Shown piece by piece: positions 460 to 19,831 of a stretch of 64,000 nucleotides of DNA. Below the pieces are notes generated by a model. That model saw only the letters and a program-made list of their open reading frames with translations, was not told the DNA's origin and searched no databases. Position 1 is the stretch's first letter. Each line of letters opens with the position of its first letter. Source of the stretch: Thermoanaerobaculia bacterium (GTDB lineage Bacteria > Acidobacteriota > Thermoanaerobaculia > UBA5066); NCBI GenBank assembly GCA_963719225.1, contig CAVRAY010000002.1:544001-608000 (forward strand), given 5' to 3'. A program made the position numbers and the translations under genes.

Positions 460-1293
460 GGCCGCCGCGCGTCTGAACAAGTCACAGCCGGCCGTGACGA
501 TGACGGTGAAGGCTCTGGAGCGGGAGATGGGTGTGCCCCTCTTTGCGCGGGAGGGCCGCGGAAAGAGGCTGACGGCGGCGGGAGCGAGGCTGGCCGCGAA
601 GGCCGCGGGCATCCTGGAGGGCGCGCGGCGATTGAAGGAGGATGTCGCCGGAGAGCCGGAGGTGCCCCGGGGGCCCGTGCGGGTGGGGGCCGGGGAGGCC
701 GCCATCGTCTACTTCCTGCTTCCGCTTCTTCGAAGGATTCGCGAGGCGTACCCGTCCCTGGCTCTCGAGGTGCGAAACCAGCGCGACATGGAGTCGTTCG
801 ATCAGTTGCTCGCGGGCGAGCTGGACCTGGCGGTTCGGTCCCGGGAGGCGCTGCCGCACGGTTTGAGGTTCGAGCCGCTGTTCGCGTCGGATCGAATGCT
901 GATCGTGCCGCGTGGTCACGAGCTGGCGGGGAAGAAGCGCCCGACGCTCAGAGACCTCGCTCGCCATGCGTTCGTGATCCCCCCGGCGGGTTCGACGTCG
1001 CGCCGCCTGATCGAGGCCGCGTTCCTGCGGGCCGGCCTGAGGCTGGAGATCGCGATGGAGGCGGGAGGCTGGGAGATCGTGAAGCGCCTGGTGCGGGCAG
1101 GGGTGGGCGTGGCGGTGGTTCCTCGATTCTGTTGGAGGCTCCTGATCTCAGGAGCGGTGGCGATTCCGGCGGGGCATCTCTTCCCTCCGGATGTCCATGG
1201 GCTGGTGACGCGGGAGGGCACCGGCGCCTCATCCGCAACGGCCGCCGTGACGCGGGTGCTGGAGGAGGCGGGGAGGAGGGTGGGGTAGGGGGG
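460..1293 (+). repeat. LysR-gene-derived array repeat, copy 1 (longest; lacks start of HTH; ORF 494-1288)
   Basis: AAARLNKSQPAVTMTVKALEREMGVPLFAR...LTAAG LysR HTH plus substrate-binding domain (GELDLAV, GVGVAVVP); no N-terminal start; ends in GGGGAGGAGGGTGGGGTAGGGGGG. Confidence 0.93.
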
Positions 1294-1304
1294 CTTTACA
1301 TGAC

Positions 1305-1332
1305 TTGCGAGTATACGCAGAATGCGTATACT
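1305..1332 (+). promoter_or_regulatory. TA promoter with palindromic operator
   Basis: TTGCGA-16-TATACT; perfect inverted repeat GTATACGCA-gaa-TGCGTATAC at 1311-1331; GTG start 7 nt after -10. Confidence 0.7.
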
Positions 1333-1339
1333 TTCAGGC

Positions 1340-1683
1340 GTGAAAGGCGTGTTCGTCGAGCTGCCCGCCTTCGAACGACATCGGACGAATTACCTCGATG
1401 ACGAGGCGTTCCGGAGCCTCCAGAGCCTTCTCATGAAGGATCCGTCGGCGGGCGACCCGATCCCGGGGACCGGAGGCCTGCGAAAACTTCGCTTCGCCGA
1501 TGTGCGGCGGGGAAAAGGAAGCGAGGCGGGCTCAGGGTGATCTATTACTGGTGGCAGGCCGGGCTGCAGTTCTGGCTCTTCACCATCTACGCCAAGGACG
1601 AGATGTCGGACTTGACCGCGGCCCAGCGCGAAGCGCTGAAGAGAATGATCAAGGCGGAACTGGAAGCAAGGAGAACGTCATGA
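1340..1683 (+). pseudogene. higB: HigB2/RelE-family toxin, frameshifted near 1515-1520
   Basis: FVELPAF...GDPIPGTGGLRKLRF then, in a shifted frame, KRGGLRVIYYWW...LFTIYAKDEMSDLT; one base missing in GGAAAAGGAAGCG. Confidence 0.85.
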
Positions 1684-2027
1684 AGATCGAAGGCGGAGGC
1701 AGGCGGGCGCGTTCGGGCAAGCGCGACCTGTTCGTCGAGCTGAGCGAGGGAGTCGCCGCTCTCACCGAAGCGCGTGAGGGGAAGCGGACGCTGCGATCTC
1801 ACACGGTCGAGTACAAGCCGGCGCCAAAGGTGACACCACAGGAGTTGATTCGCGTTCGCGAGCACCTGAACCTGTCGCGCGCCCTCTTTGCCGTCTATCT
1901 GCGGACCAACGTGCGAACTCTGGAGAACTGGGAGCAGGGCCGCGCCAAGCCGAATGCGCAGGCGGCTCTTCTGATCAACCTGGTCAAGAAGTACCCGGAC
2001 ACGGTCGAGCGGCTCGCAGCGATCTGA
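1680..2027 (+). CDS. higA: HigA2-type XRE HTH antitoxin
   Basis: ATGA overlap with toxin stop; IRVREHLNLSRALFA...RTLENWEQGRAKP HTH. Confidence 0.88.
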   Translation: MKIEGGGRRARSGKRDLFVELSEGVAALTEAREGKRTLRSHTVEYKPAPKVTPQELIRVREHLNLSRALFAVYLRTNVRTLENWEQGRAKPNAQAALLINLVKKYPDTVERLAAI

Positions 2028-2062
2028 TCAGGAGCCTTAGCCGGTAAGCTTGACCCTGGGCA

Positions 2063-2995
2063 ATGAGCTACGACCTTTTCTTCCGGTTTCGTCCCGGCGC
2101 ACTTCACGCCTCCGCCAGCGAGATCCTGGACTTCTTCAAATCGCGTCCCGGATATGAGTGCTCCGAGACGCAGGCCTGGTACTCGAACGAAACGACGGGC
2201 GTCTATTTCTCGTTCGAGATTGAGGAACGGGGAACTGCGGAAGAGGCGGGCGAGCAGTTCGACGAGGAAGCACCTCCGCCAGATCCTGACGCGGCGCCCG
2301 TTTCCTTCAACATCAACTACTACCGCCCGCACTTCTTCGGGCTGGAGGCCGAGCCGGAGCTGACGCTGTTCGTGAAGCTCTTCGACCTGCTCGTGTCCGA
2401 CCCGCAGGTCAGCGGGATGGGCGATGGGGAGTACACGCCAGAAGGATTCTTGGCGGGCTGGAACGCAGGAAACGTCGTCGGATATCGCGCCGCTGCTGCG
2501 TCAATCGAGGACGAAAAACCTCACCTTCTGCCCACCGCGGTACTGGAGCGGATCTGGCGTTGGAACTACACCCGCCCCAATCGCGCGGAGGCGCTCGGCG
2601 AGGAGACATACGTGCCCCGGATCTTCCACTTCCAGAAAGACGGCCAGCTGCAGTCGGGCATCGTATGGGGCGATGCGATGCCTATCCTGATTCCGCGGGT
2701 CGACCTGATCCTTGCCCCTCGCGAAAAACTAGCCCCTCGCAGGTTCTTCAAGGCGCAAGAGGACAAGGTGCTGTGCACATGGGGCGAGATCGAGCCGCTC
2801 CTCACGACGTTTCCTCAGGTGAACGACTATCTGCCGGCTTGGCGTCTTTCCTATCGGGAGATTCCGCGGGCCATCGAGGCGTTCTTCCGCTCGCATGAGC
2901 CGCTCCTTGATACGTCGGCAGGCATGAAGATCGTCGCGATGGACCTCGTGCTGAACGCGGAGATCTATGAAGAGGCGCGAAAGCCTCGCACCTAG
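2063..2995 (+). CDS. hypothetical protein (cassette cargo)
   Basis: 310-aa ORF with protein-like composition; stop lies 1 nt before repeat copy 2. Confidence 0.8.
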   Translation: MSYDLFFRFRPGALHASASEILDFFKSRPGYECSETQAWYSNETTGVYFSFEIEERGTAEEAGEQFDEEAPPPDPDAAPVSFNINYYRPHFFGLEAEPELTLFVKLFDLLVSDPQVSGMGDGEYTPEGFLAGWNAGNVVGYRAAAASIEDEKPHLLPTAVLERIWRWNYTRPNRAEALGEETYVPRIFHFQKDGQLQSGIVWGDAMPILIPRVDLILAPREKLAPRRFFKAQEDKVLCTWGEIEPLLTTFPQVNDYLPAWRLSYREIPRAIEAFFRSHEPLLDTSAGMKIVAMDLVLNAEIYEEARKPRT

Positions 2996-2996
2996 C

Positions 2997-3524
2997 GGCG
3001 TACCCGTCCCTGGCTCTCGAGGTGCGAAACCAGCGCGACATGGAGTCGTTCGATCAGTTGCTCGCGGGCGAGCTGGACCTGGCGGTTCGGTCCCGGGAGG
3101 CGCTGCCGCACGGTTTGAGGTTCGAGCCGCTGTTCGCGTCGGATCGAATGCTGATCGTGCCGCGTGGTCACCTTAGAAACCCCTCGCTCGCCATGCGTTC
3201 GTGATCCCCCCGGCGGGTTCGACGTCGCGCCGCCTGATCGAGGCCGCGTTCCTGCGGGCCGGCCTGAGGCTGGAGATCGCGATGGAGGCGGGAGGCTGGG
3301 AGATCGTGAAGCGCCTGGTGCGGGCGGGGGTGGGCGTGGCGGTGGTTCCTCGATTCTGTCTGGAGGCTGCTGATCTCAGGAAGCTGGTGGCGATTCCGGC
3401 GGGGCATCTCTTCCCTCCGGATGCTTATGGGCTGGTGACGCGGGCGGGCACCGGCGCCTCATCCGCAACGGCCGCCGTGACGCGGTTGCTAGAGGAGGCG
3501 GGGAGGAGGGTGGGGTAGGGGGGG
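2997..3524 (+). repeat. LysR-derived repeat copy 2
   Basis: Near identical to 746-1293; internal deletion variant ggtcaccttagaaacccctcg at about 3170. Confidence 0.95.
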
Positions 3525-3529
3525 CGGGG

Positions 3530-3841
3530 CTATCTGGCCACGGCCCGGGCGATCTCTCGAGGCCGTTTCCCGGTGGCGAGAAGCGACCGAACGATGAGAT
3601 CGAGGCTGACCTGCGCGTCAGCGGCCTCCATCTTCGCGACTCGGGACTGGCTCGAGCCCAGCTTCGAGGCGAGCGCCGTCTGGGACAGCCCCTTCTTCAA
3701 GCGCGCCTTCTTGAGTTCGCGAGCGAGGCTGAGCTTGATCTCGATGTAGGCCGATTCCTCGGGGGTCAGGCCGAGGAAGGTCTCGGCGGATCCGAATGTC
3801 CAGCCCTTCTTCGTGAGGCGAGCCTTCTTCGTCTTGTCCAT
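3530..3841 (-). CDS. XRE HTH antitoxin
   Basis: ELKKARLKKGLSQTALASKLGSSQSRVAKME HTH; follows toxin. Confidence 0.88.
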   Translation of the reverse strand: MDKTKKARLTKKGWTFGSAETFLGLTPEESAYIEIKLSLARELKKARLKKGLSQTALASKLGSSQSRVAKMEAADAQVSLDLIVRSLLATGKRPREIARAVAR

Positions 3842-3845
3842 CTGA

Positions 3846-4178
3846 TTACTCCCTGTCCCATGCCGCGAGGCGCTGCGCGCAGGCGGCGATCACGGCTTTC
3901 GGCGTGCGTTGAGTGCCCTTCTTCTCGACTCCCAGTACCACGATCGCGTCATGCCGAACTGCATAGAAGATCCGCCAGTCGACGTTCCCGTCGGGCACTC
4001 GGAGCTCGTGGCAACCCTTCCCGATCCCCGGCATCGGTCGAGAATCCGGCAGCGAAAGCACGTCCCCCTGCTGAAGGCCCCTCAAGAGGTATCCGGCACG
4101 AACCCGCCCCTCCTTCGAAAAGGGCGGAGACTTGATTCCACCGTGCATCCACGCGAGGGGTTTCTCGGGGAGCTTCAT
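3846..4178 (-). CDS. RelE/ParE-superfamily (Gp49/DUF891-like) toxin
   Basis: SPPFS...SRPMPGIGKGCHELRV...WRIFY...KKGTQRTP motifs. Confidence 0.85.
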   Translation of the reverse strand: MKLPEKPLAWMHGGIKSPPFSKEGRVRAGYLLRGLQQGDVLSLPDSRPMPGIGKGCHELRVPDGNVDWRIFYAVRHDAIVVLGVEKKGTQRTPKAVIAACAQRLAAWDRE

Positions 4179-4231: not shown

Positions 4232-4569
4232 GTCCCCGGAGGTGCTGCCGCACGGTTTGAGGTTCGAGCCGCTGTTCGCGTCGGATCGAATGCTGATCGT
4301 GCCGCGTGGTCACGAGCTGGCGGGGAAGAAGCGCCCGACCCTCAGAGACCTCGCTCGCCATGGGTTCGTGATCCCCCCGGCGGGTTCGACGTCGCGCCGC
4401 CTGATCGAGGCCGCGTTCCTGCGGGCCGGCCTGAGGCTGGAGATCGCGATGGAGGCGGGAGGCTGGAGATCGTGAAGCGCCTGGTGCGGGCAGGGGTGGG
4501 CGTGGCGGTGGTTCCTCGGCCGCCGTGAGGAGGGTGCTGGAGGAGGCGGGGAGGAGGGTGGGGTAGGGG
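4232..4569 (+). repeat. LysR-derived repeat copy 3
   Basis: Matches 838 onward of copy 1; private deletion at about 4517 (gttcctc/ggccgccgtg). Confidence 0.95.
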
Positions 4570-4575: not shown

Positions 4576-4788
4576 TTAGGCGTAGGCGAGGCGGCCGCGG
4601 GCCTCGGGAATGGGTCGCCCGAGCGACTTTGCGGTCTCGATCCACTCGCGAATGACTACCTCGGCGGCCGCGAGAGCCTCGGCGTAGGACGCACCATCGG
4701 CCATGCAGCCCGGCAGCTCGGGAACCTCGGCGACGAACGCCTCGTCCTCTTTGCTCCAGTAGATGATGACTTCGTACTTGGGGCTCAT
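4576..4788 (-). CDS. hicB: HicB-family antitoxin
   Basis: YEVIIYWSKED...VPELPGCMADG...EAL...GRPIP. Confidence 0.9.
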   Translation of the reverse strand: MSPKYEVIIYWSKEDEAFVAEVPELPGCMADGASYAEALAAAEVVIREWIETAKSLGRPIPEARGRLAYA

Positions 4789-5039
4789 AGCGCACCTGAA
4801 AGTTTATACCGGACGAGAATCGATCGCACCTGCTTGACCTGATAAGGCTTAGCTTTCGAACCCTTGGGCTGAATGTTGAGGATCTCGACGACCCCGTCCT
4901 TCGTGAAGATGTGATGGCTGCCTCGGGTGCGACTCTCGAACCCGAGTTCCTCGAGGAGAGCGCAGAGATCTGAGAAGCGGATGTTTGCGTCCGAGGCTCC
5001 GGTCAGGATCTGCTCCAGAAGCCGGCTGTGCCGAGTCAC
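4785..5039 (-). CDS. hicA: HicA-family toxin
   Basis: IRFSDL...LGF...RGSHHIF...KAKPYQVKQV; leaderless GTG 6 nt after TAGCGT. Confidence 0.9.
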   Translation of the reverse strand: MTRHSRLLEQILTGASDANIRFSDLCALLEELGFESRTRGSHHIFTKDGVVEILNIQPKGSKAKPYQVKQVRSILVRYKLSGAL

Positions 5040-5143
5040 GGGAGAACGCTAGCACGCCGAGCGACTCGCGAGCCGGCGCCGGAGGGGCTGGACTTGCCCC
5101 GATTTCGGGCGATAGGATTTGCCTCGCCAACCGGGGGTACATC

Positions 5144-7001
5144 GATGACGCGGTCGCTCATATCGGCCTTGGCTTCGCTTCTCCTCGCAGTGGATGTCCG
5201 GGCGGCCGACCCCCGCTGGACGGTCGAATTCAAGGAAGGCGCGCGCACCTTCCTCACGGCGACGGGCCTCGAGGTCGGACAGAAGACAACTCCGGGCGCG
5301 ACGATCGCGGGATACCTCGTCGTCAAGCTGCCAGCCGACGTCGACCCCGCCACCACGAACCGCGGCGTGTTTCTCGGCCGCGTGCGTGTGCCCGAGCGGC
5401 GTGTCACTTGGCTGAAAGGGGACGAGTTTGCGGCCGGTGCGCTGCTGCCCGCGCAGCACCTCATCGCCGTCACTCCCAACGCCGGCTTCGAGCCCGGGTT
5501 GTGGGCGGTGAAGGTCCGCGACACCGTCAAGGACCGCAACGGGCGCCCGGTCAATCCCACGAACGCCACGTGGACGGTCGAGATCGGGGAACCGCGTGTA
5601 CGGCCGGACGAAAGCGGCCCGGCTCGTAACACGCTGAAGCTGAAGTTCACGACCGAGGTCGATCCGGCGACGTACGCGGACGGGATCGTCGTGGAGAAGC
5701 AGGTCGCGGGAGGCTGGGAGGAGGAGCCGCGGGGCAGCGCGACGATCGCGCCGCGGGAGCACGGCGGGTCGGTCAACGAGATCGGTCTCCGGCCCCTCGG
5801 CGGGTGGGAACGTGGGGCGACGTACCGCGTGCGCGTCACGGAGGCAATCCGCGACCTTCGTGGGCTCCCCCTGACGAACGCCGAAGACTTCAGCTTTGTT
5901 GTGCCGAAGTCCGGGCCGTTCGACACGCGTCACGAGCCGCGGCGGCCGGTGGCGCAGGCGAGTGCACAGGCGGCCTCTGCAGGGCCGGCGTTCCCGGGCG
6001 GGCAGGCGCTGGGCTGGCACGGGCACTGGACCGACCCCGTCACCGGGCTCATCTACATGCGCCACCGCTGGTACGACCCGCGGACGGGGACGTTCCTGTC
6101 GCCGGATCCGCTCGAAGACATCGACTCGCCGAACCAGTACCTGTTCGGCGCGGGCAGGCCGCACGAGGTGGTGGATCCGCTGGGGCTGTGTCTAGGTCTG
6201 GACAAGGAAGGGCGCCCCTGCGGTTACTACGCTGACAGGATCGACGACTACCTAGTCGAGACGGCGAAGCTGCGAAGAGACCGAACCGGGGTTCCACTGG
6301 CCCTCGATCGTCTGCTGCTCAGTCCGGTCACGGGGATTCTGCGACTCGGCGAGGCGCAGGGTCGACTCGGCTATCGATACGCCGAGGCTTTGACCAATCC
6401 CAGGGTCGCCCTGCCGCCAGGCGCGACCGTCACGAGCGAGACGAACGAGGTCGGAGCCGACCTGCTTCAGGCTGCCGGCGACGCAGCGCTGCTGGCGCCG
6501 CTGACGAGGGGCCTGGTTGGCATGCGCACCGCTGCCTCGCCTGCCGCTTTAGTCCCCATTGCGGAGTCGATGCGTCCGTCTCTGCCGGTGCTGAACCCGC
6601 ATTTCACCCCCGACCCAAAGGCGGTGTTGCAGAACCTGGCCACCTTCCAGAACGCACGGCTTGCTGCGAATCCGGCGCTCGCAGAAACGGTCCTGACACG
6701 CCCGGAGTACGCTGCCGCCACGAAGAACATCGGCATCGCGCGGATGGAGTGGGGGAACGCGGTTGAACGGCTAATGGCGGGAGAGGTTCGTGAGCAGCCC
6801 TCACTCAGATCTATGTTCGAACACCAGGGCGGACCAAACAGGCCAGATTTCATAGGAAGAGGCGCCTTCGATGGGCTGAAATTCGAGGTGACGACACCCG
6901 GACAAGTACGGGCGCACTTGGCTCGGCCCCGATACGGACTAGGATTGAATGTAGTCACCTACCAGAGGCCCGCGGGCTTTACTCTATTCCCGCCACAATG
7001 A
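5144..7001 (+). CDS. secreted Ig-domain mini-Rhs polymorphic toxin 1 with putative nuclease C-terminus
   Basis: Signal peptide MTRSLISALASLLLA..VRA; Big_5-like Ig segments; Rhs core DPVTGLIYMRHRWYDPRTGTFLSPDP...NQY...DPLGL; CT with RPDF..FEVTT..H. Confidence 0.85.
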
Positions 7002-7690
7002 GGGTATTCGAAGGGCGCGAATTTCGTTCCTTTTACGACGATGGGGACTCGCTCTTCGAGGACATCGAGTTCCGGCGATGCTCCTTCATCAGTTCGGCGA
7101 TCTCGATCACGAGAAACCCCGGTCGAAGGTCGACGGCTCGACGTTGTCGTGTCATTTCGTGTGAACAGCGAGGGTGCGCGATCGATACAGCCGTCCTTGA
7201 GGATGTGCTCGTGGACGGATTTCTCACGCATGGCCTCTTGCAGACTTGGGGGGCCGTCTTCAAGCACGTCACGCTTCGGGGCCGGATGGGGCGAATCATG
7301 ACGAGTGACCGCATCGCTACGGGCACCGCTACGGCTGCCGAGCAGAGCGCCTTCGATGAAGCGAACGCTGCCTACTACGCCGCTGTCGATTGGGCCCTGG
7401 ACCTGCGCGAGGCGGAGTTCACAGACGAACCGGACTTCAGGGGCATCCCCGCGAGGCTTGTCATCCGAGACCCTGATTCACAGGTTGTGGTGACGCGAGA
7501 GAGGGCGATGCAGGGGACGTGGAGGCAGGTCGACCTCTCGGGCACCTCCTGGGAGGCGTACATCCAGGGAATGCTGAGGGACGGCTATCCCGACGTCATC
7601 CTCGTCGCACCTAAGCGGAGTCGGAAGTTCCGGGACCTGCTCAATGGGCTCATGAGACTGAAAGACGCCGGCGTTACGGAACCGTATTGA
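6998..7690 (+). CDS. probable cognate immunity protein (beta-helix-like N-terminus)
   Basis: ATGA overlap with the toxin stop; FEDIEFRRCSF repeat-like pattern. Confidence 0.7.
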   Translation: MRVFEGREFRSFYDDGDSLFEDIEFRRCSFISSAISITRNPGRRSTARRCRVISCEQRGCAIDTAVLEDVLVDGFLTHGLLQTWGAVFKHVTLRGRMGRIMTSDRIATGTATAAEQSAFDEANAAYYAAVDWALDLREAEFTDEPDFRGIPARLVIRDPDSQVVVTRERAMQGTWRQVDLSGTSWEAYIQGMLRDGYPDVILVAPKRSRKFRDLLNGLMRLKDAGVTEPY

Positions 7691-8088
7691 TGGCATCGAG
7701 GATCATCGCGCACCGTGTGGAACTGCCGGGAGAAGGAATCCACGAAGTCTCCCTCGAGGCCTCGGACCACGGCCTTGTCATCGACGTCAACGCATCCACG
7801 GCCTACCACTACATCACGAACCGGGACTTCTCCGAGATCTTCGACGCACTGCACCTATACGATCGCGGCACCGCTGATGAGCTTCAGGGCGGAGAGTCAG
7901 CGTTCGTCGTGTGGTCGCCCGAACTCCAACGAGCCGGCGTCTTCTATCGGGGCAGGTTTCAGGCCGCTGTGGACTTTGAACGACACGAGGCGCGCTGCCG
8001 CAGCGGGTTTCCGACGTTGCCAAACACTCCGTGGCTTCGATCGGGCCACGGGTGGGACGATGAGCTCGTAAAGGGGCTGGAACCCTGA
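7687..8088 (+). CDS. DUF2251-like protein, possible orphan immunity gene
   Basis: DALHLY...WSPE...AAVDF...CRSGFP motif pattern. Confidence 0.65.
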   Translation: MMASRIIAHRVELPGEGIHEVSLEASDHGLVIDVNASTAYHYITNRDFSEIFDALHLYDRGTADELQGGESAFVVWSPELQRAGVFYRGRFQAAVDFERHEARCRSGFPTLPNTPWLRSGHGWDDELVKGLEP

Positions 8089-8113
8089 ATTTACAGACCC
8101 CCAGCAGGCCTGC

Positions 8114-9857: not shown

Positions 9858-9860
9858 AAG

Positions 9861-9921
9861 CTAAGCGACTTGATAGATGGCGGGCTTGAAGGACGGGGGC
9901 GGTATGGTCTTACCCGCCTCC
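9861..9921 (-). pseudogene. 3' remnant of hicB like 18596-18657
   Basis: EAGKTIPPPSFKPAIYQVA* versus EAGKPIPPPSFKPAIYQVA* at 18596. Confidence 0.8.
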
Positions 9922-10570: not shown

Positions 10571-10657
10571 GGCTGGCCGATTATCGCTCTCCGGCCGAGG
10601 GTCTGGACTTGCCCTGATTTCAAGCGATAGGATTTGCCCCGCCACCGGGGGTACATC

Positions 10658-12216
10658 GATGAAGCGGTCGCTCATATCGGCCTTGGCTTCGCTTCTCCTC
10701 ACGGTAGACGTCCGGGCGGCCGAGCCTCGCTGGACGGTCGAATTCAAGGAAGGCGCGCACACATTCCTGACGGCGACGGGCCTCGAGGTCGGGCAGAAGA
10801 CAAGTCCCGGGGCGATCGCGGGTTACCTCGTCATCAGGCTTCCCGCCGACGTCGACCCCGCCACGACAAATCGCGGGATCTTTCTCGGTCGCGTGCGTGT
10901 GCCCGAGCGCCGGGTCACGTGGCTGAAGGAGGACGCAGTAAAGGTGCGCGACACGGTCAAGGACCGCAGCGGGCGCCCGATCAACCCCACGAACGCTACG
11001 TGGACGGTCGAGATCGGGGAGCCTCGCGCGCGTCCGAACGACTCCGGTCCGGCGCGCAACACCCTCAAATTGAAGTTCACGACCGAGGTCGACCCGGCGA
11101 CGTACGCGGACGGGATCGTCGTGGAGAAACAGGTCGCGAGCGGGTGGGAAGAGGAGCCGCGGGGCAGCGCGACGATCGCACCGAGCGCGCACGGCGGCTC
11201 GGTTAACGATATCGGACTCCGGCCGCTGGGCGGATGGGAGCGCGGCTCGACGTACCGCGTGCGCGTCACGGAGGCGATCCGCGACGTGCGCGGACAGCCG
11301 CTGACGAACGCCGAGGACTTCAGCTTCACCGTGCCGAAGTCCGGGCCGTTCGACACGCGCCACGAGCCGAAGCGGCCCGTGGCGCAGGCGAGCGCACAGG
11401 CGGCATCAGCAGGGCCGGCGTTCCCGGGCGGGCAGGCGCTCGGGTGGCACGGGCACTGGACGGACCCCGTCACCGGCCTGATCTACATGCGCCACCGCTG
11501 GTACGACCCGCGGACGGGGACGTTCCTCTCGCCGGACCCGCTGGAGGACATCGACTGGCCGAACCAGTACCTGTTCGGAGCGGGTAGGCCGCACGAAGTG
11601 GTGGATCCGCTGGGGCTGGCGGTGACGGTGAAGTGGGAGAAAGGCGTTCTCTGCAGGGGCTGTCTGACGTTTGGCGCCGACCTCGGGTTGACGATGGGAG
11701 GAACCGGAGTTCCAGTTCGCAAAGGACGTGGCCGGTGTCTATCTGCCCCGTCTCTTCGCCAGGCCGCGGCCTCGGGTTGCCACAGCCGGTGTCAGAGGTT
11801 CGGCCCCGATTGGTCCGGTGGGTCCGGTTCAGGCACTCGAGCCGGGGCAATGGGTGAGAGCCAGCGAGTCCATGAGTGCACGCGCTGCGGCCTACCAAAC
11901 GCAGATCTCTGGCCGGGCCGCCGGTGAGGTCTACCTGGTGGACGGAGTGAATTTCGATGCATTTCGCGGCGGAACGCTCCTCGACGCGAAGGGCCCGGGC
12001 TATGCGACCTTTACGAAAGACGGACGCTTTCGGGAGTTCTTTCAGGGTGCCGAGGATCTGCTTAGCCAGGCGGCTCGACAGGTGCGGGCCGCTGGCAAGA
12101 CATCCATCGAATGGCATGTCGCCGAAAGGGAGGCCGCCGACGCCATCACGACGTTGTTGCGTGAGGCGGGCTATTCTTCTCGGATCAATGTTGTCTTCAC
12201 ACCTCCAGTGCCGTGA
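10658..12216 (+). pseudogene. mini-Rhs toxin 2 with Tox-REase-5 C-terminus, frameshifted near 11690
   Basis: Paralog of 5144-6188 up to DPLGL; CT in another frame AAAYQTQISG...NFDAF...LLDAKGPGY...QAARQ...IEWHVAE. Confidence 0.82.
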
Positions 12217-12941
12217 TGGCGGATAGCTTCGTTGTCGGCGCCTACTGGGGGAGCCGGTCGGAGATGCCGGAGGGCTGCGCACAAAGGCTGAATCAACTGC
12301 TCGCCGGGCTGAAGTCCCTGGACCCGGTGTTTGCTGGATGGTTCGCAAAAGGGCCTTCTGCGGGAATAGACCGAACAAAGAATCTCTCGCCCGCGGACAT
12401 CAATGATCTCGCTATGCGTGGAGTGAATCGGCGCGACCTCGGCGCCTCGCCCATCCCTGCGCTTGGCGTGCGAATCGGAGTTTGGAACGGCGGCCGCGAG
12501 GGAACGACCGCGGTGGGCATCAGCACGCGCTGTGGCTCCTTCGATGAGTCCGGCGGCGTGCCGGCCTTGAACTCACTTCTCATCAGCCTGCCGAATCAAG
12601 GCCCGGACGCCGATCGCATTCTCAACATCGAGGCACTTGAAGAAATGCTCGAAGTGGTCGTTCGCGCCTACGACCCGGACTGGGCGGTCGTGGCATCACG
12701 AGAACACATGAAGCTGTGGCCTTCTGGTCCTGAGGGCGGGCCCCACGCGGGCTGGATCACATATCTGTCCAGACGAAATAGAGAAGCGACGTTGGCGGCC
12801 AACGGTTTGGCCCTGAAACGCCTTGAGTTCGCTGCTTTCGGGACAGCCTGGGTCACGACGGAGGAGAGGTTTTCTCTTAGCAACCCCACTCACATCGCAC
12901 AGGGGCGCGTGTTGGAACAAGCCATCAGCCGAAGACCGTAG
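12213..12941 (+). CDS. Imm52-family immunity protein
   Basis: GAYWGSRSE..C...LDPVFAGWF...WNG...GWITY; overlaps the toxin stop; Imm52 is the usual Tox-REase-5 partner. Confidence 0.8.
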   Translation: MMADSFVVGAYWGSRSEMPEGCAQRLNQLLAGLKSLDPVFAGWFAKGPSAGIDRTKNLSPADINDLAMRGVNRRDLGASPIPALGVRIGVWNGGREGTTAVGISTRCGSFDESGGVPALNSLLISLPNQGPDADRILNIEALEEMLEVVVRAYDPDWAVVASREHMKLWPSGPEGGPHAGWITYLSRRNREATLAANGLALKRLEFAAFGTAWVTTEERFSLSNPTHIAQGRVLEQAISRRP

Positions 12942-12987: not shown

Positions 12988-13652
12988 GCTCTGGAGCGGG
13001 AGATGGGTGTGTCCCTCTTCGCGCGGGAGGGTCGCGGAAAGAGGCTGACGGCGGCGGGAGCGAGGCTGGCCGCGAAGGCCGCGGGCATCCCGGAGGGCGC
13101 GCGGCGATTGAAGGAGGATGTCGCCGGAGAGCCGGAGGTGCCCCGGGGGCCGGTGCGGGTGGGGGCCGGCGAGGCCGCCATCGTCTACTTCCTGCTTCCG
13201 CTTCTTCGACGGATTCGCGAGGCGTACCCGTCCCTGGCTCTCGAGGTGCGAAACCAGCGCGACATGGAGTCGTTCGATCAGTTGCTCGCGGGCGAGCTGG
13301 ACCTGGCGGTTCGGTCCCGGGAGGCGCTGCCGCACGGTTTGAGGTTCGAGCCGCTGTTCGCGTCGGATCGAATGCTGATCGTGCCGCGTGGTCACGAGCT
13401 GGCGGGGAAGAAGCGCCCGACGCTCAGAGACCTCGCTCGCCATGCGTTCGTGATCCCCCCGGCGGGTTCGACGTCGCGCCGCCTGATCGAGGCCGCGTTC
13501 CTGCGGGCCGGCCTGAGGCTGGAGATCGCGATGGAGGCGGGAGGCTGGATGTCCATGGGCTGGTGACGCGGGAGGGCACCGCCGCCTCATCCGCAACGGC
13601 CGCCGTGAGGAGGGTGCTGGAGGAGGCGGGGAGGAGGGTGGGGTAGGGGGGG
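12988..13652 (+). repeat. LysR-derived repeat copy 5
   Basis: Near identical to copy 1; about 120-bp deletion ggaggctgg/atgtccatgg at about 13548. Confidence 0.95.
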
Positions 13653-13681: not shown

Positions 13682-13927
13682 GTGAGCCGAGACCCGCTGC
13701 TCGCCAGAATCACGCTGGACCCCAAGGTCATGGTGGGGCAACCCGTGGTCCGTGGCACGCGCCTGACCGTCTCCTTCATCCTGGGCCGTCTCGCCCACGG
13801 ATCCGCGGTGGAGGACCTGCTGAGCGAGTATCGCGGGCTGACCCAGGAAGACGTTCAGGCCTGCCTGCTCTTCGCTGCGGAAGCGGTGGGCGACAACACC
13901 TTCGCCCCCCTCGCCAACGCGAAGTAA
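13682..13927 (+). CDS. DUF433 antitoxin
   Basis: RITLDPKVMVGQPVVRGTRLTV...LTQEDVQACL; leaderless GTG 6 nt after TAGAAT. Confidence 0.9.
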   Translation: MSRDPLLARITLDPKVMVGQPVVRGTRLTVSFILGRLAHGSAVEDLLSEYRGLTQEDVQACLLFAAEAVGDNTFAPLANAK

Positions 13928-14111
13928 GTGCGTTTTCTCGTCGACGAATCGACGGGGCCTGACGTGGCGCGGTGGCTTCGAGCGCCCGGCAAACAAGAAG
14001 GCGGTTCTGGAGAGGCTCCTTCAGGGGCACGGTAAGGACATTCCCGGCAGTTTCGTCGTCGTGTCGGAGGACACCGTGAGGATCACGCGGTTCTCGGGTG
14101 GCGGGAGCTGA
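13928..14111 (+). pseudogene. DUF5615 (PIN-like) toxin with central deletion
   Basis: VRFLVDESTGPDVARWLRA joined out of frame to C-terminal ERPANKKAVLERLL...FVVVSEDTVRI. Confidence 0.75.
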
Positions 14112-14433
14112 GGCGTACCCGTCCCTGGCTCTCGAGGTGCGAAACCAGCGCGACATGGAGTCGTTCGATCAGCTGCTCGCGGGCGAGCTGGACCTCGCGG
14201 TTCGGTCCCGGGAGGCGCTGCCGCACGGTTTGAGGTTCGAGCCGCTGTTCGCGTCGGATCGAATGCTGATCGTGCCGCGTGGTCACCTCAGAAACCCCTC
14301 GCTCGCCATGCGTTCGTGATCCCCCCGGCGGCTGTCCATGGGCTGGTGACGCAGGAGGGCACCGGCGCCTCATCCGCAACGGCCGCCGTGAGAAGGGTGC
14401 TGGAGGAGGCGGGGAGGAGGGTGGGGTAGGGGG
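14110..14433 (+). repeat. LysR-derived repeat copy 6 (shortest with full 3' end)
   Basis: gaggcgtacccg...ggggtaggggg with two internal deletions. Confidence 0.95.
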
Positions 14434-14448: not shown

Positions 14449-14772
14449 ATGAGCCCCGCGCAAGTGCTTTCAAGCGGACGGATTACGGTGCCTCGGGAGG
14501 CCATTGCGGGCTTCTGCCGGAAGCACCACATCCGGCGGCTGGCTCTGTTCGGGTCGGTGCTTCGAGACGACTTTCGAGGTGACAGCGACGTGGACGTCCT
14601 GGTCGAGTTCGAACCCACCCACGTTCCCGGGTTCTTCGGGCTTTTCGGAATGGAGCAGGAGCTTGGGGAGATCGTCGGCCGCAAGGTGGACCTGAACACG
14701 CCGGGCTCGCTGAGCAAGTACTTCCGGGCCCGGGTATTGGCCGAGGCCGTGCCGCTGCATGACGCGGCATGA
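14449..14772 (+). CDS. MNT antitoxin
   Basis: [22 protein letters not shown]. Confidence 0.9.
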
Positions 14773-15097
14773 CGAGGACGCGCGCCTCCGGCACATGCTG
14801 GACGCTTCGCGCGAGGCCGTCGGCTTCGCGAAAGGGAGATCGAGAGCAGACCTGCACGCCGACCGCGGCTTGCAGCTGATTCTCACGAGGCTTCTCGAAA
14901 TTGTCGGCGAGGCGGCGAACAAGGTGCCGCAGGCGACACGCGACCTCTACCCTGAGATTCCCTGGTCGGCCGCGATCGCGATCCGAAACCGCCTGATCCA
15001 CGGCTACGAGGACGTCGACCTCGACATCGTCTGGCAGACTGTCAACGAGGATCTGCCGAAGTTGATCCGGGCACTGGAGATCGCTGTCGGCGGGTAA
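14759..15097 (+). CDS. HEPN/DUF86 toxin
   Basis: EIVGEAA...EIPW...RNRLIHGY. Confidence 0.9.
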
Positions 15098-15117
15098 AGG
15101 GACGACGCAACGACGTT

Positions 15118-15711
15118 CTACCTTTTCCCCTTCGGCGCCTGCGGCCGGAACAGCTTGAGGATCTCGTTGACCAGGTTCAGATCGAAACGTTCCGGGTTGT
15201 ACCGCGGGCCGGCCCAGGTTCGCACGCGGTCGTGCTCCTCGTGCGCCGGGTCGCGCCAGGCCTCGAGAAACCCCACGTAGCCGCCGGTGCCTCCGCAGTC
15301 CTCGGGCGGTGCGGCACGGGCGCCTCCGAGACAGACCGGATAACGGATGGCGGGGTCGGGCGAGAAGCGCTTCTCGACGGCGATGTCGTGGATCCAGTCG
15401 TCCCCGAAGTCGTACGTGTACGAGAAGCGCGTGACGTCGCGTGTCACGAGGTCGCCGAGCCGCGTCATGCGCGGGTGACGGGGACGGACGTCCTCCGGGA
15501 ATTCCGGGTCGGGTTCTGTCACTCGCGACGTCCCGACCTCGAACGCGTAGAGGTGGCTGTGCTCCCACCCGAAAGACCACTGGATGATCTCGTGAAGGAG
15601 ATGGAACGTGCGCGTGTTCGTGACGTGAATGACGCGATAGATCGGCCGCTCGACGTCGCGGATCCGAATCCGGAGCTGAAGGACCTCTTCAGGGAAAGCG
15701 GCGGGTTTCAT
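15118..15711 (-). CDS. plasmid pRiA4b ORF-3 family protein
   Basis: LHEIIQWSFGWEHSHLYAF...YTYDFGDDWIH...PPEDCGG. Confidence 0.88.
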   Translation of the reverse strand: MKPAAFPEEVLQLRIRIRDVERPIYRVIHVTNTRTFHLLHEIIQWSFGWEHSHLYAFEVGTSRVTEPDPEFPEDVRPRHPRMTRLGDLVTRDVTRFSYTYDFGDDWIHDIAVEKRFSPDPAIRYPVCLGGARAAPPEDCGGTGGYVGFLEAWRDPAHEEHDRVRTWAGPRYNPERFDLNLVNEILKLFRPQAPKGKR

Positions 15712-15729: not shown

Positions 15730-16373
15730 GGCCGCCGCGCGTCTGAACAAATCACAGCCGGCCGTGACGATGACGGTGAAGGCTCTCGAGCGGGGAAAGA
15801 GGCTGACGGCGGCGGGAGCGAGGCTGGCCGCGAAGGCCGCGGGCATCCTGGAGGGCGCGCGGCGATTGAAGGAGGACGTCGCCGGAGAGCCGGAGGTGCC
15901 CCGGGGGCCGGTGCGGGTGGGAGGGGATTCGGATTCGCGAGGCGTACCCGTCTCTGGCTCTCGAGGTGCGAAACCAGCGCGACATGGAGTCGCTCGATCA
16001 GTTGCTCGCGGGCGAGCTGGACCTGGCGGTTCGGTCCCGGGAGGCGCTGCCGCACGGCTTGAGGTTCGAGCCGCTGTTCGCGTCGGATCGAATGCTGATC
16101 GTGCCGCGTGGTCACGAGCTGGCGGGGAAGAAGCGTCCGACGCTCAGAGACCTCTCTCGCCATGCGTTCGTGATCCCCCCGGCGGGTTCGACGTCGCGCC
16201 GCCTGATCGAGGCCGCGTTCCTGCGGGCCGGCCTGAGGCTGGAGATCGCGATGGAGGCGGGAGGCTGGCTGTCCATGGGCTGGTGACGCGGGAGGGCACC
16301 GGCGGCGCCTCATCCGCAACGGCCGCCGTGAGGCGGTTGCTGGAGGAGGCGGGGAGGAGGGTGGTGTAGGGGG
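15730..16373 (+). repeat. LysR-derived repeat copy 7
   Basis: Same 5' start as copy 1 (ggccgccgcgcgtctgaacaa); several deletions; third G-tract changed to GGTG. Confidence 0.95.
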
Positions 16374-16388: not shown

Positions 16389-16712
16389 ATGAGCCCCGCG
16401 CAAGTGCTTTCAAGCGGACGGATTACGGCGCCTCGAGAGGCCGTTGCGGGCTTCTGCCGGAAGCACCACATCCAGCGGCTGGCTCTGTTCGGGTCGGTAC
16501 TTCGAGACGACTTTCGCCCCGAGAGCGACGTGGATGTCCTGGCCGAGTTCGAGCCCGGGGGCGTGCCGGACTTTTTCGAGCTGGTCGGAATGAAAGAAGA
16601 GCTTTCTTCGATCTTCGGCCGCCGGGTGGACCTCAAGACCCCGAACTCTCTGAGTCCGTATTTCCGCGACCGGGTTCTCGCCGAAGCTTTCCGCCTCCAT
16701 GACGCGGCATGA
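16389..16712 (+). CDS. MNT antitoxin (paralog of 14449)
   Basis: [19 protein letters not shown]; 5' half nearly identical to 14449. Confidence 0.9.
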   Translation: MSPAQVLSSGRITAPREAVAGFCRKHHIQRLALFGSVLRDDFRPESDVDVLAEFEPGGVPDFFELVGMKEELSSIFGRRVDLKTPNSLSPYFRDRVLAEAFRLHDAA

Positions 16713-17034
16713 CGAGCTGATTCGCCTTCAGCACATGCTGGACGCGGCCCGTGAGGCGGTCGAGCTCGTCCGCGGTCGGACCTCGCAGCAAATCGAGGAA
16801 GACCGCCTTCGGGTGCTCGCACTCGAGAGGCTGTTCGAGATCATCGGAGAAGCGGCTGCACAGACCTCTGACGGCGTCCGGGCGCGATACCCGGAGATTC
16901 CGTGGAGCCGGATCGTCGGGATGCGCAACGAGATCATCCACGGCTATTCGACGATCGATCTCGAGATAGTCCTCAAGACGGTGGAGAACCGGCTCCCAGC
17001 GCTGATCAGGCAACTCGAAGCGGCTCTGAAGTAG
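16699..17034 (+). CDS. HEPN/DUF86 toxin
   Basis: EIIGEAA...EIPW...RNEIIHGY. Confidence 0.9.
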   Translation: MTRHDELIRLQHMLDAAREAVELVRGRTSQQIEEDRLRVLALERLFEIIGEAAAQTSDGVRARYPEIPWSRIVGMRNEIIHGYSTIDLEIVLKTVENRLPALIRQLEAALK

Positions 17035-17051
17035 TCGGCTGCTCCTGACGC

Positions 17052-17465
17052 AGGATTCGCGAGGCGTACCCATCCCTGGCTCTCGAGGTGCGAAACCAGC
17101 GCGACATGGAGTCGTTCGATCAGTTGCTCGCGGGCGAGCTGGACCTGGCGGTTCGGTCCCGGGAGGCGCTGCCGCACGGCTTGAGGTTCGAGCCGCTGTT
17201 CGCGTCGGATCGAATGCTGATCGTGCCGCGTGGTCACCCCAGAGACCTCTCTCGCCATGCGTTCGTGATTCCCCCGGCGGGTTCGACGTCGCGCCGCCTG
17301 ATCGAGGCCGCGTTCCTGCGGGCCGGCCTGAGGCTGGAGATCGCGATGGAGGCGGGAGGCTGGATGTCCATGAGCTGGTGACGCGGGAAGGCACCGGCGC
17401 CTCATCCGCAACGGCCGCCGTGAGGCGGTTGCTGGAGGAGGCGGGGAGGAGGGCGGGGTAGGGGG
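17052..17465 (+). repeat. LysR-derived repeat copy 8
   Basis: aggattcgcgaggcgtaccc...ggggtaggggg. Confidence 0.95.
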
Positions 17466-17584: not shown

Positions 17585-17926
17585 CTACGGTGTGGCAGGG
17601 CTGCCGAGGATTTCGATTACCTTGGCCTTCAACGCAGGCACGTCCCGCGCAACGGCGACCCAGACTTCCTCGAGGTCAATGCCGAAGTAGTCGTGTACGA
17701 GGATGTTCCGCATGGCGGCTATCTGACTCCACGGGACATCCGGGTGCGCGGCGCGAATCCCCTCCGAAAGGCCACGCACAGCTTCGCCAATGATCTGAAG
17801 GTGATGGACGATCCAGGTCTGGACCAACTCGTCGCCGTCAAACGGAGTCCGGCCGCCGCTCGCATACTTCTCGATGCGCTCGATCGCCTCAAGGATGTCT
17901 TCGAGGCGTTGCCGGTCCCGCTTCAA
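17585..17926 (-). CDS. HEPN/DUF86 toxin
   Basis: LEDILEAIERI...IIGEA...RNILVHDY. Confidence 0.9.
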   Translation of the reverse strand: MKRDRQRLEDILEAIERIEKYASGGRTPFDGDELVQTWIVHHLQIIGEAVRGLSEGIRAAHPDVPWSQIAAMRNILVHDYFGIDLEEVWVAVARDVPALKAKVIEILGSPATP

Positions 17927-18213
17927 AGCGGAACGGCCTCTTTCAGGACTCGGTCCCGGATTCGGGACCGCAGCCCGCGGGCGACGGCGACGTCGACTCT
18001 GCGGCCGAGCAAGGCTTCGAGCTCTATCACCAGGGCGGCGTGATCGAGAAGGCTACGGCCGGGCTCGAGATCGACGAGCAGGTCCACGTCGCTATCCGCC
18101 GAAGCTTCGCCGCGCGCGACTGATCCAAACACGCGCACGTTGCCCGCTCCGTGGGCCTTGGCCGCGCGGAGGATCGCAGGCCGGTTCTCGCTGAGGAATT
18201 CTTCGATTCCCAT
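17923..18213 (-). CDS. MNT antitoxin
   Basis: VFGSVARGEASADSDVDLLVD; RBS GAGG and TACAAT upstream. Confidence 0.9.
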   Translation of the reverse strand: MGIEEFLSENRPAILRAAKAHGAGNVRVFGSVARGEASADSDVDLLVDLEPGRSLLDHAALVIELEALLGRRVDVAVARGLRSRIRDRVLKEAVPL

Positions 18214-18243: not shown

Positions 18244-18595
18244 GATCAGTTGCTCGCGTGCGAGCTGGACCTGGCGGTTCGGTCCCGGGAGGCGCTGCCG
18301 CACGGTTTGAGGTTCGAGCCGCTGTTCGCGTCGGATCGAATGCTGATCGTGCCGCGTGGGTCACCTTAGAAACCCCTCGCTCGCCATGCGTTCGTGATCC
18401 CCCCGGCGGGTTCGACGTCGCGCCGCCTGATCGAGGCCGCGTTCCTGCGGGCCGGCCTGAGGCTGGAGATCGCGATGGAGGCGGGAGGCTGGATGTCCAT
18501 GGGCTGGTGACGCGGGAGGGCACCGGCGCCTCATCCGCAACGGCCGCCGTGACCCGGTTGCCGGAGGAGGCGGGGAGGAGGGTGGGGTGGGGGGG
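18244..18595 (+). repeat. LysR-derived repeat copy 9
   Basis: gatcagttgctcgc...; stop codon changed TAG to TGG with G-tracts retained. Confidence 0.95.
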
Positions 18596-18814
18596 CTAAG
18601 CGACTTGATAGATGGCAGGCTTGAACGACGGGGGCGGGATCGGCTTTCCCGCCTCCTTGGCAGCCTCCAGCCAGGCGGCCTTCGCCTTCAACACTTCCTC
18701 GAGCGCCTTTTCAGGCGTCTCTCCAAAGGCGGAGCAGTGCGGCAGATCGGGGATATCGGCGATGTAACCGCCATCCTCGTCGCTCTGGAAGATGTTGATG
18801 TGGTAGTCCTTCAT
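18596..18814 (-). CDS. hicB: HicB-family antitoxin
   Basis: YHINIFQSDEDGGYIADIPDLPHCSAFGETPEKAL. Confidence 0.9.
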   Translation of the reverse strand: MKDYHINIFQSDEDGGYIADIPDLPHCSAFGETPEKALEEVLKAKAAWLEAAKEAGKPIPPPSFKPAIYQVA

Positions 18815-19058
18815 TCGTCGCCTGCGAGCTTTAGATTATGCCGCTCTACGAGTTGGAGCAACTGCTTGATCTGATAAGGCTTGGCCTGTCCGTGAACTTC
18901 CTGGAGATTCAGGAGCTGCGGGATTGCACGAAGATGTGGTGGCTCCCACTTACGCGACTGAGACGGAACCCGAAGGCCTCAGCGAGCGCCCGGGCCTCGG
19001 CGAACCTGAAGTTGTTTGGAGAGGCCAGCGCCCTCTGGAGGAGCTTTCGGGGGTTCAT
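18811..19058 (-). pseudogene. hicA: HicA toxin, frameshifted near 18925
   Basis: MNPRKLL...RVSGSHHIFV then shifted IPQLLNLQEVHGQAKPYQIKQLL. Confidence 0.82.
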
Positions 19059-19084
19059 TGGCTGAACCTAAACCTAGCACGCCT

Positions 19085-19458
19085 GCGAGGCGTACCCGCC
19101 CCCAGGCTCTCGAGGTGCGAAACCAGCGCGACATGGAGTCGTTCGATCAGTTGCTCGCGGGCGAGCTGGACCTGGCGGTTCGGTCCCGGGAGGCGCTGCC
19201 GCACGGTTTGAGGTTCGAGCCGCTGTTCGCGTCGGGTCGAGTGCTGATCGTGCCGCGTGGTCACCTTAGAAACCCCTCGCTCGCCATGCGTTCGTGATCC
19301 CCCCGGCGGGTTCGACGTCGCGCCGCCTGATCGAGGCCGCGTTCCTGCGGGCCGGCCTGAGGCTGGAGATCGCGATGGAGGCGGGAGGCTGGACGTCCAT
19401 GGGCTGGTGACGCGGGAGGGCACCGGCGCCTCATCCGCAACGGCCGCCGTGAGGAGGG
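19085..19458 (+). repeat. LysR-derived repeat copy 10 (3' end truncated before the G-tract)
   Basis: gcgaggcgtaccc...gccgtgaggaggg. Confidence 0.93.
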
Positions 19459-19459
19459 G

Positions 19460-19655
19460 GCCATAGAACTCGGCGACGGCCGTTTGCACCGCCCCGGCCG
19501 CGAGAGCACGGTCGACATGAGCGAGAAGCGTCCGGGCGAGGTCCGCGTCGATCCGGTTCAAGGTCCGCCAGAGGCTCTCCTCCGGATTCGAGCGCTCCGC
19601 ACCCAGGCAGCAGGCCTTGTACTTCTTCCCGCTCCCGCACGGACACGGTGCGGCC
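19460..19655 (-). pseudogene. SEC-C motif protein fragment
   Basis: APCPCGSGKKYKACC followed by a helical segment; truncated at both ends. Confidence 0.7.
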
Positions 19656-19659
19656 GCGC

Positions 19660-19800
19660 GCGGGCGCTCGACTCGAAGACGTGGGGCGAGTTTCGGAGCC
19701 GCATCCCCGCCGAGGAGTAGAAGGAGCTGGCCTCGAAGCTCGAGGAGATCCCGGCGAAAGACGAGCCGTTCGACGTGGCGTGCGTTCCCGGTTTCTGCGA
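19660..19800 (+). pseudogene. hypothetical gene fragment with in-frame stop; also present at 17482-17541
   Basis: KTWGEFRSRIPAEE*KELASKLEEIPAKDEPFDVACVPGF; DNA match to 17482-17541. Confidence 0.6.
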
Positions 19801-19831
19801 GTCGTCCGATCAGTTGCTCGCGGGCGAGCTG
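19799..19831 (+). repeat. LysR repeat remnant (copy 11)
   Basis: gagtcgtccgatcagttgctcgcgggcgagctg. Confidence 0.8.

Follow-up and report, generated by a model that had tools for sequence, protein, structure and literature searches.

A toxin–antitoxin cassette array spaced by 3′ fragments of a lysR gene, probably built and reshuffled by host homologous recombination

Integrons (IntI, attI, attC) carry compact cassettes, rich in toxin–antitoxin (TA) modules, in ordered and variable arrays. Additive islands at tRNA genes are usually ascribed to integrases. In the additive flexible genomic islands of Alteromonas, as the available text of the source describes them, a single locus varies in how many cassettes it holds and in their order, a piece of the target gene recurs downstream of a cassette and near-identical cassettes occur across species, the targets being mostly tRNA or tmRNA genes and the repeats short (PMC4898812). 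For the T6SS immunity-gene arrays of Vibrio cholerae, homology-facilitated illegitimate recombination has been proposed and an integrase is not known; new modules enter at the front, behind a conserved upstream anchor, and push the older ones back at the expense of the old effector, which is displaced and lost; the accessible part of the account describes no repeated anchor between modules (PMC5361080). In Rhs/CDI displacement and its orphan arrays, again according to the sections available, paired homologous and illegitimate recombination swaps the in-frame C-terminus of a toxin gene, which is itself the anchor, and leaves behind it displaced 3′ gene fragments with variable starts, which stay substrates for later recombination (PMC8125069).

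Here we describe, in one genus of uncultured Acidobacteria, dozens of TA modules kept apart by incomplete copies of a single ordinary gene, a lysR regulator. With integrons the locus shares the compact, TA-rich cassettes and their ordered yet variable arrangement, with the Alteromonas islands the varying cassette complement, the repeated piece of target gene and the cassettes common to several species, with the Vibrio arrays the presumed front addition at an anchor that pushes older modules back, and with Rhs/CDI the displaced 3′ fragments of variable start. It differs from integrons in that the spacer has neither attC boxes nor a hairpin, no IntI is linked to it and the genome's own integron is separate; from the Alteromonas islands in its accessory protein-gene targets, its repeats of 30–890 bp with variable starts and the lack of a linked integrase; and from the Vibrio arrays in that the anchor is duplicated, so that every cassette keeps flanking direct repeats. 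In contrast to Rhs/CDI, an unrelated gene, for a regulator or a chaperone, serves as anchor and supplies the repeated 3′ end from its own sequence, and entire independent operons form the cargo, past the stop, outside the open reading frame and in either orientation. A literature search that took in few subscription papers and no supplements found no description of such an array.

The window, by which we mean the whole 64,000-nucleotide stretch of DNA analysed, belongs to genome G000. Its first-pass annotation had listed ten direct lysR fragments and a remnant, which BLASTN with the first copy against the whole genome recovers (Table 1), at identities of 86–100% (gaps counted) and E-values of 1e-17 to 0 (9e-8 for the remnant), with the start of the eighth moved to 17049. 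As also noted there, nine copies end at the lysR stop while their 5′ ends vary: these nine run 3–5 nt past the stop, the tenth ends 29 nt before it, the starts fall between nt 62 and 441 of 895, and the first 20 codons of the HTH region are missing even from the longest. Copy 9 has TGG in place of the TAG stop. Internal deletions of 25–116 bp are common to several copies, and the overall pattern of deletions and SNPs is individual to each.

Table 1. Features of the cassette array and its right flank (window coordinates; nt, position in lysR)
Feature	Position	Strand	Details
lysR copy 1	460..1293	+	nt 62-end, TAG + G-run at end; Pfam HTH_1 (partial), LysR_substrate
TA pair, RelE/HigB-like toxin (frameshifted) + HTH antitoxin	1322..2027	+	toxin without Pfam match; RelE/HigB-like label presumed
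310-aa ORF	2063..2995	+	no Pfam, no PADLOC family
lysR copy 2	2997..3523	+	nt 348-end, 25-bp deletion B
TA pair Gp49-like (DUF891) + HTH	3530..4178	-	Pfam
lysR copy 3	4232..4569	+	nt 441-end, internal deletion; BLASTN
HicA/HicB pair	4576..5039	-	Pfam
Ig-domain ORF with Rhs-core-like motif and variable C-terminus, then three ORFs	5028..8953	+	
Three ORFs behind Ig-domain ORF: 230 aa without assignment, DUF2251, pentapeptide repeat	within 5028..8953		Pfam
lysR copy 4	9060..9858	+	nt 71-end, 29-bp deletion A
Stub of HicB gene end behind lysR copy 4	to 9921		
MNT/HEPN pair	9910..10594	-	Pfam
Second Rhs-like module: Tox-REase-5 C-terminus (broken frame) + Imm52	10560..12941	+	Pfam
lysR copy 5	12988..13651	+	nt 115-end, 116-bp deletion C
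DUF433 + internally deleted DUF5615 (PIN) gene	13682..14109	+	Pfam; intact homologue in G008
lysR copy 6	14110..14433	+	nt 346-end, deletion B + larger deletion
MNT/HEPN pair (+) and pRiA4b ORF-3 gene (-)	14449..15711	mixed	Pfam
lysR copy 7	15730..16373	+	nt 63-end, deletions A and C
MNT/HEPN pair	16389..17034	+	Pfam; junction to lysR nt 334 seen again in four other loci, run X5
lysR copy 8	17049..17465	+	nt 334-end, deletion C
MNT/HEPN pair	17585..18213	-	Pfam
lysR copy 9	18244..18595	+	nt 403-end, deletions B and C
HicB + HicA-like gene (frameshifted)	18596..19063	-	HicA label by likeness to L078 HicA, not Pfam
lysR copy 10	19085..19461	+	nt 344-866, deletions B and C
lysR remnant, 33 bp	19799..19831	+	BLASTN
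5′ remnant of TY-Chap3/TY-Chap1 gene (spacer gene in relatives)	20153..20314	+	
Conserved 595-aa gene	22640..24427	+	right-flank marker in several relatives; adjoins WYL gene in G002

The nine TA pairs and the pRiA4b ORF-3 gene named in the first-pass annotation hold up: Pfam matches at least one partner in all nine (HTH/MqsA-like, Gp49+HTH, HicA+HicB, four HepT+nucleotidyltransferase, DUF433 and HicB), as well as pRiA4b ORF-3. Where it had seen two Rhs toxin–immunity modules, Pfam identifies Tox-REase-5 and Imm52, whereas the Rhs label itself is our presumption from a core motif, the only Pfam match of ORF 5028–7001 being Big_5. Several cargo blocks hold more than one module.

An intact master lysR had been expected upstream. 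There is none in G000, where the sole relative is a 31% paralogue on contig C1, and the 20 kb upstream of the array are a WYL/helicase/Mza-RM defence block; the leftmost copy is likely the 5′-clipped master itself. Full-length LysR proteins of 296–297 aa are encoded in other assemblies (P0018, whose contig measures 82 kb, and P0019), and a copy in G044 is complete at its 5′ end, yet carries a 32-bp deletion; the sequence past it looks foreign, may be a mis-join, and beyond its first bases was not used as cargo evidence.

We tallied 114 lysR copies in 50 loci (40 from metagenomes, 10 from genomes), which are not all independent, as some metagenome contigs have haplotypes in common. Before counting, we removed a duplicate of the G012 region, three chance matches of 24–29 nt and five loci that overlapped; two overlapping loci were merged, and an identical contig stands for G012 C1. 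The 3′ end lies within −3 to +8 nt of the stop in 72 of 99 resolved copies, and the 93 resolved 5′ starts are scattered over nt 1–870; counted as distinct flank classes, 34 of the 3′ ends are at the stop, 5 at −4 to −25 and 16 internal. At least two copies are present in 29 of the loci and at least three in 13.

Among relatives and metagenomes, cassette content and order vary between loci instead of following one fixed arrangement. The 5′ junction of a spacer goes with the upstream cargo and its 3′ junction with the downstream cargo: among the 13 recurring 5′ junction classes, 10 lead into two or more different next cargos, and among the 14 recurring 3′ cargo classes, 11 are found with two or more different upstream partners. 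An example is the junction of a HEPN gene end to lysR nt 334, found in five loci, in four of which the next cargo is resolved and different each time. For the deletion pairs A and C, and B and C, all four combinations occur, although the rare classes come from just one or two copies in G000 and could also be imitated by recurrent deletion. Together, junction linkage and deletion combinations point to crossovers inside the lysR spacers. Cargo ends and lysR starts have only about 0–4 nt in common (judged by eye, where other context is comparable), and deletions would look alike; since one cargo end can join different lysR positions (nt 344 and 599; 331 and 403), secondary deletion is also needed.

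The first-pass annotation had missed that lysR is not the only spacer: 3′ fragments of the chaperone gene TY-Chap space homologous cassettes in G044 (C4), G004 and G001, with four copies, 92–94% alike, in G004; the TY-Chap stop is the 3′ end of 28 of 43 resolved copies. In G000 and G019, a WYL gene has a new C-terminus followed by 1 kb of cargo and its own displaced old 3′ end, which may be read as a single event of the same type caught after one step. The locus is a fixed one with variable cassette number and order, and in G002, where the WYL gene abuts the 595-aa flank gene, it is an empty site. Probably any small gene that is shared in the island can take the part of the anchor, as lysR does here, TY-Chap in other lineages and WYL in one case.

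We consider it probable that the array, with lysR 3′ fragments as spacers between TA and toxin–immunity cassettes, owes its assembly and reshuffling to homologous recombination of the host and not to an integrase of its own. In the model we favour, incoming DNA carrying an anchor gene with a cassette right behind its stop would pair with the anchor gene already in place, and an illegitimate join would link its other end to a point inside that gene. A complete anchor would then be followed by the new cassette and by a displaced 3′ fragment, which would stand ahead of the older cassettes. As each cassette sits between direct repeats, crossovers in these could then insert, swap or delete cassettes, also across species, as the junction linkage suggests; TA addiction would favour retention, and small deletions would wear the repeats down. 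Such homology-anchored capture with illegitimate back-join, followed by homologous shuffling, would resemble Rhs C-terminal displacement. The circles envisaged in the first-pass annotation are one possible route; for a cassette already between two copies, two-armed recombination with linear DNA would give the same product. Of that interpretation, the reality of the array, its varying content and order and, by the junction pattern, recombination within the lysR copies are supported, and the upstream master is not. The uptake genes comEC and dprA are present in G000 and comM in 5 of 5 genomes; they lend weak support, because they are widespread in control genomes (10, 11 and 14 of 14, respectively).

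The recombinase sought nearby was not found: G000 has no tyrosine recombinase near the island and no serine recombinase at all, and in five relatives the nearest tyrosine recombinase on the same contig is at least 76 kb away or absent. A site-specific enzyme (IntI, XerC/D or another) inserting cassettes in trans at a gene-end site would suit the precise 3′ junctions, and G000 does encode a true IntI on another contig (C1:1115046; 467 bits against a cut-off of 265) and five further tyrosine recombinases; IntI and Xer-type enzymes elsewhere in the genome could act in this way. Nonetheless, we hold this to be very unlikely: a fixed crossover site predicts fixed 5′ starts, which instead scatter, no consensus follows the G-run across the 34 stop-end classes, the two spacer genes are unrelated, and the window cargo has no match in the genome's integron arrays. 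What we take to be the attC box consensus is present in the genome's own attC-like repeats and absent from the 105-nt 3′ core of the lysR spacer. Folding of this core gave no hairpin of significance (z −0.18 and −0.75), a weak test given that the attC-like repeats also have z near 0. An equally slight chance is left to tandem duplication and deletion within lineages: the island, rich in TA modules, would then have needed no special route of capture, and species would have exchanged little. Deletions are indeed frequent in lysR, TY-Chap and cargo, stubs of earlier cargo remain behind the G-run, the same island also has TA modules that lack spacers, and deletion alone can create both junction types; but the same junctions and deletions turn up beside different neighbours in different species and in metagenomes, 34 of 55 junction classes at the stop are unexpected from random deletion, and lysR copies are more alike between genomes (95.5–99.6%) than the WYL and flank genes (88–95%), as they are between a C1 segment of G000 and C2 (99.1% against 79–86% for core genes).

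That the array merely concatenates strain variants of a single lysR-adjacent site is largely refuted and close to negligible, even though G000 has 6.2% contamination, the start of its C1 resembles a relative's copy of the same locus and G044 turns foreign-looking right after lysR. Against it stand the multiple copies, with cargo in other orders, in 29 of the 50 loci (three or more in 13), the individual deletion and SNP pattern of each window copy, and the reappearance of window junctions in unrelated runs X4 and X5, in which summed contig depth increases toward the 3′ part (24 sequencing runs, 6 of them RNA; DNA runs X1, X3, X4 and X5 were examined). We also think it unlikely, if less so than insertion in trans, that the G-rich gene end itself acts in cis, as a G-quadruplex or as a G-run hot spot of breakage or slippage, and drives stop-exact capture, with homologous shuffling to follow. 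The lysR end has a G4Hunter score of 2.72 (0.009% of genome windows, own copies counted), and TY-Chap ends score 1.7–2.2 in a comparison made after both anchors had been seen, while of 2020 predicted gene ends no more than 8 reach 1.5; G-runs also link several cargo starts in other contexts, and a G4 starts pilin gene conversion in Neisseria, according to the available text of the sources (PMC13463697, PMC3547852). However, four G3 tracts are kept in just 41 of 72 full-ended lysR copies, GGG follows only 9 of 28 TY-Chap stops, and 127 of 143 sites scoring at least 2.0 lie outside any local duplication (14 of the other 16 are lysR copies), which rules out G4 as a sufficient cause.

If homologous recombination is indeed the builder, an integron-like TA/defence library can exist with no recombination handle beyond a recycled accessory gene. 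Such arrays would escape searches that rely on attC sites, integrases or short att repeats, and they are points at which short-read assemblies break. With two interchangeable anchors, the one-step WYL case and the empty site, birth, spread and decay become readable from sequence, allowing a direct test of homology-anchored capture, so far argued mostly for toxin genes alone; the array also offers, in little space, candidate anti-phage modules of a class without cultured members. It is possible, though doubtful, that a general integrase-free system is at work, in which G-rich gene ends are programmed capture points, operons are added at the stop, a variable stretch of gene is duplicated and several species share and reorder at least 34 TA/defence cassettes; any such gene (lysR, TY-Chap) would then be a self-extending repeat, and the whole a functional counterpart of sedentary integrons.

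Other origins were set aside. No match was found among 72,556 plasmids or, with one exact 24-nt pattern as the query, in viral contigs; reverse transcriptases, considered as agents of capture, were present in just 2 of 5 genomes and at a great distance from the array; and the other repeat clusters of G000 (kinase paralogues, IS copies, an attC-like array) are not related to it. The stop-exact position of many different cargos is left without account by the model of homologous capture. Among lysR copies, 60 of 130 substitutions are synonymous (27% expected), an excess that fits import from functional alleles and does not separate the main model from its rivals. Finally, toxin genes are broken in 3 of the 9 pairs in the G000 assembly, and the single-base frameshifts among them may be sequencing errors, because frameshifts are abundant elsewhere in that assembly.

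The lysR array is real and variable, and it is established in its anatomy, its variation, the linkage of its junctions and the absence of a linked recombinase; recycling of gene fragments as substrates for homologous recombination is, in our judgement, its likely explanation. The window covers positions 544001-608000 of contig C2. BLASTN within the studied genome (G000) recovered all ten direct lysR fragments and the 33-bp remnant described in the first-pass annotation, and the nine copies read there as ending at the lysR stop do so, with ends 3–5 nt past it and starts between nt 62 and 441 of the 895-nt gene. Because internal deletions (A, 29 bp; B, 25 bp; C, 116 bp; D, 32 bp) are shared among them, the copies are more than simple truncations. 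The nine toxin-antitoxin (TA) pairs each have Pfam support for at least one partner, as do pRiA4b ORF-3, Tox-REase-5 and Imm52; the Rhs label of the two modules is tentative and follows from a motif that resembles the Rhs core. Three further lysR copies at the start of contig C1 (L001, L003) form an array of their own, and the ~42 kb around them are 74–89% identical to C2 545–603 kb; this end of C1 probably represents the locus of a relative, joined into the G000 assembly.

Among the 28 genomes of the genus, seven match the lysR DNA. G008 and G012 hold arrays, four genomes carry remnants, and the copy in G044 is complete at its 5' end but has a deletion. Titled records with this lysR (L090, L091, L094) are labelled Acidobacteriota or Thermoanaerobaculia. 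In G002 the site is empty, a WYL gene adjoining the 595-aa flank gene. A pattern scan of metagenomes returned 50 loci; the set analysed after dropping overlaps, a duplicate and 24–29-nt chance matches comprised 50 loci (40 from metagenomes, 10 from genomes) with 114 lysR copies, at least two of them in 29 loci. Full-length LysR proteins (296–297 aa) are present in other assemblies, and in sequencing runs X1 and X5 (L104:1503-1504) the DNA directly before the start codon differs from that in G044; in X5 a −10-like box lies 7 nt before the ATG, and a leaderless promoter is suggested for this full-start lysR.

Most resolved lysR 3' ends (72/99) fall within −3 to +8 nt of the stop, and 93 5' starts are spread over nt 1–870; counted as flank classes, 34 fall at the stop, 5 slightly before it and 16 inside the gene. 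The 5' junction is tied to the preceding cargo and the 3' junction to the following one. A shufflable library had been proposed, and content and order do vary among relatives and metagenomes, junctions recurring with different neighbouring cargos: 10 of 13 recurring 5' junctions are followed by two or more different cargos, and 11 of 14 recurring cargos are preceded by two or more different partners. For deletions A and C, and likewise B and C, all four combinations were found, the rare classes being one or two G000 copies. Identity across genomes is 95.5–99.6% for lysR, 88–95% for the WYL and flank genes of the same genomes and 77 to 98% for the helicase, and junctions of the window recur in runs X4 and X5. 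From the junction linkage, deletion combinations, lysR identities and X4/X5 recurrence we infer crossovers inside the lysR spacers and exchange between species, although some contigs are not independent and the same cargo end is in some cases joined to different positions in lysR.

A second anchor is found in G044 (contig C4), G004 and G001, where homologues of window cassettes have fragments of a TY-Chap3/TY-Chap1 gene between them; no lysR DNA match was found in G001 or G004. Matches to this gene occur in 14 of the 28 genomes of the genus; among 43 resolved copies, 28 have their end at the gene's stop. In G023 (L132) a single, internally deleted copy ends at the stop and is followed by a HicB cassette. 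The WYL gene of G000 and G019 (L117) has a different C-terminus, followed by a 1-kb cargo and the displaced older 3' end, the layout to be expected of a single anchored capture.

The master lysR postulated upstream was not borne out: TBLASTN found no intact lysR in G000 and, beyond the fragments, only a 31% paralogue, and upstream of the array lie the WYL gene, a nuclease-helicase and an Mza/restriction block. The reported lack of a nearby recombinase holds, as none of the six tyrosine recombinases of G000 lies nearby (on C2, ~250 kb separate the array from the nearest one) and a search of G000 for serine recombinases found none. A true IntI is on C1, adjoined by short repeats; attC-like repeats elsewhere on C1 have paired boxes and the lysR core has none, judged by the attC box consensus.

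In its workings the array resembles Rhs C-terminal displacement (PMC8125069) and the capture through an anchor that has been proposed for the immunity arrays of V. cholerae (PMC5361080); in appearance it resembles additive islands at tRNA genes in which the target is partly repeated (PMC4898812). It belongs to none of them, because a gene unrelated to the cargo serves as anchor, cargo of either orientation sits outside the ORF, and attC, tRNA target and integrase are absent. Searches of mostly open-access papers gave no earlier description of such an array.

Under homologous recombination on recycled fragments, capture would proceed by pairing in the anchor gene and an illegitimate back-join, after which cassettes would be inserted, exchanged and lost by recombination between repeats; circles, as first proposed, may occur but would not be required. 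DNA would probably enter by transformation; comEC, dprA and comM were found, though such genes are common. TA modules favour their own retention through addiction, which may also retain the cassettes here. The exactness of capture at the stop may come from selection to keep the anchor intact, which would fit the synonymous excess among lysR copies (60 of 130 substitutions vs 27% expected). A G-rich hot spot at the gene end is another candidate; the G4Hunter scores of both anchors agree with it, but it is weakened in that the motif is incompletely conserved, 127 of 143 G-rich sites lie outside any duplication, and TY-Chap stops without a G-run exist.

Coordinates of features at the array, elsewhere in G000 and in related loci
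Feature	Location	Observation
Recurrent cassette gene	window 2063-2995	No Pfam family; candidate new TA/defence gene
Recurrent cassette genes	L046:9631-9981, L048:822-1322, L073:1376-2256, L001:14118-14774	No Pfam family; candidate new TA/defence genes
TY-Chap3/TY-Chap1 gene remnant	window 20153-20314	
595-aa flank gene	window 22640-24427	Conserved, no Pfam family; in 17/29 genus genomes, often at contig ends beside the island
WYL locus	L002:782-1873 and L002:2740-2805 (G000:C2:524782-526805)	Replaced C-terminus, lipoprotein-like cargo, displaced old 3' end
Upstream defence block	L002:7299-15675	C-5 methylase, Vsr, MzaB/C/D-like and AIPR genes; IS3-like element inserted in a gene that follows
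TY-Chap fragments in G021	L114:1-345 and 1290-1773	Two fragments flanking HicAB + HTH-type cargo
Stretch behind lysR in G044	L038 (G044:C5 from 317850)	~19 kb of actinobacterial-looking sugar-biosynthesis genes directly behind lysR; either a mis-join or a large insertion
Contig start with three-copy lysR array	G000:C1:1-42000	
Low-complexity stretch	G000:C1 54.9-56.2 kb	Very G-rich; beyond the C1 array segment
IntI	G000:C1:1115046 (in C1:1103000-1116000)	
attC-like repeat cluster	G000:C1:2197205-2210607	~65-bp repeats, TA cassettes, several IS copies; far from IntI
Kinase tandem	G000:C1:2293000-2320000	Approximately nine paralogues of a Ser/Thr kinase; kinase-domain identity 68-80%
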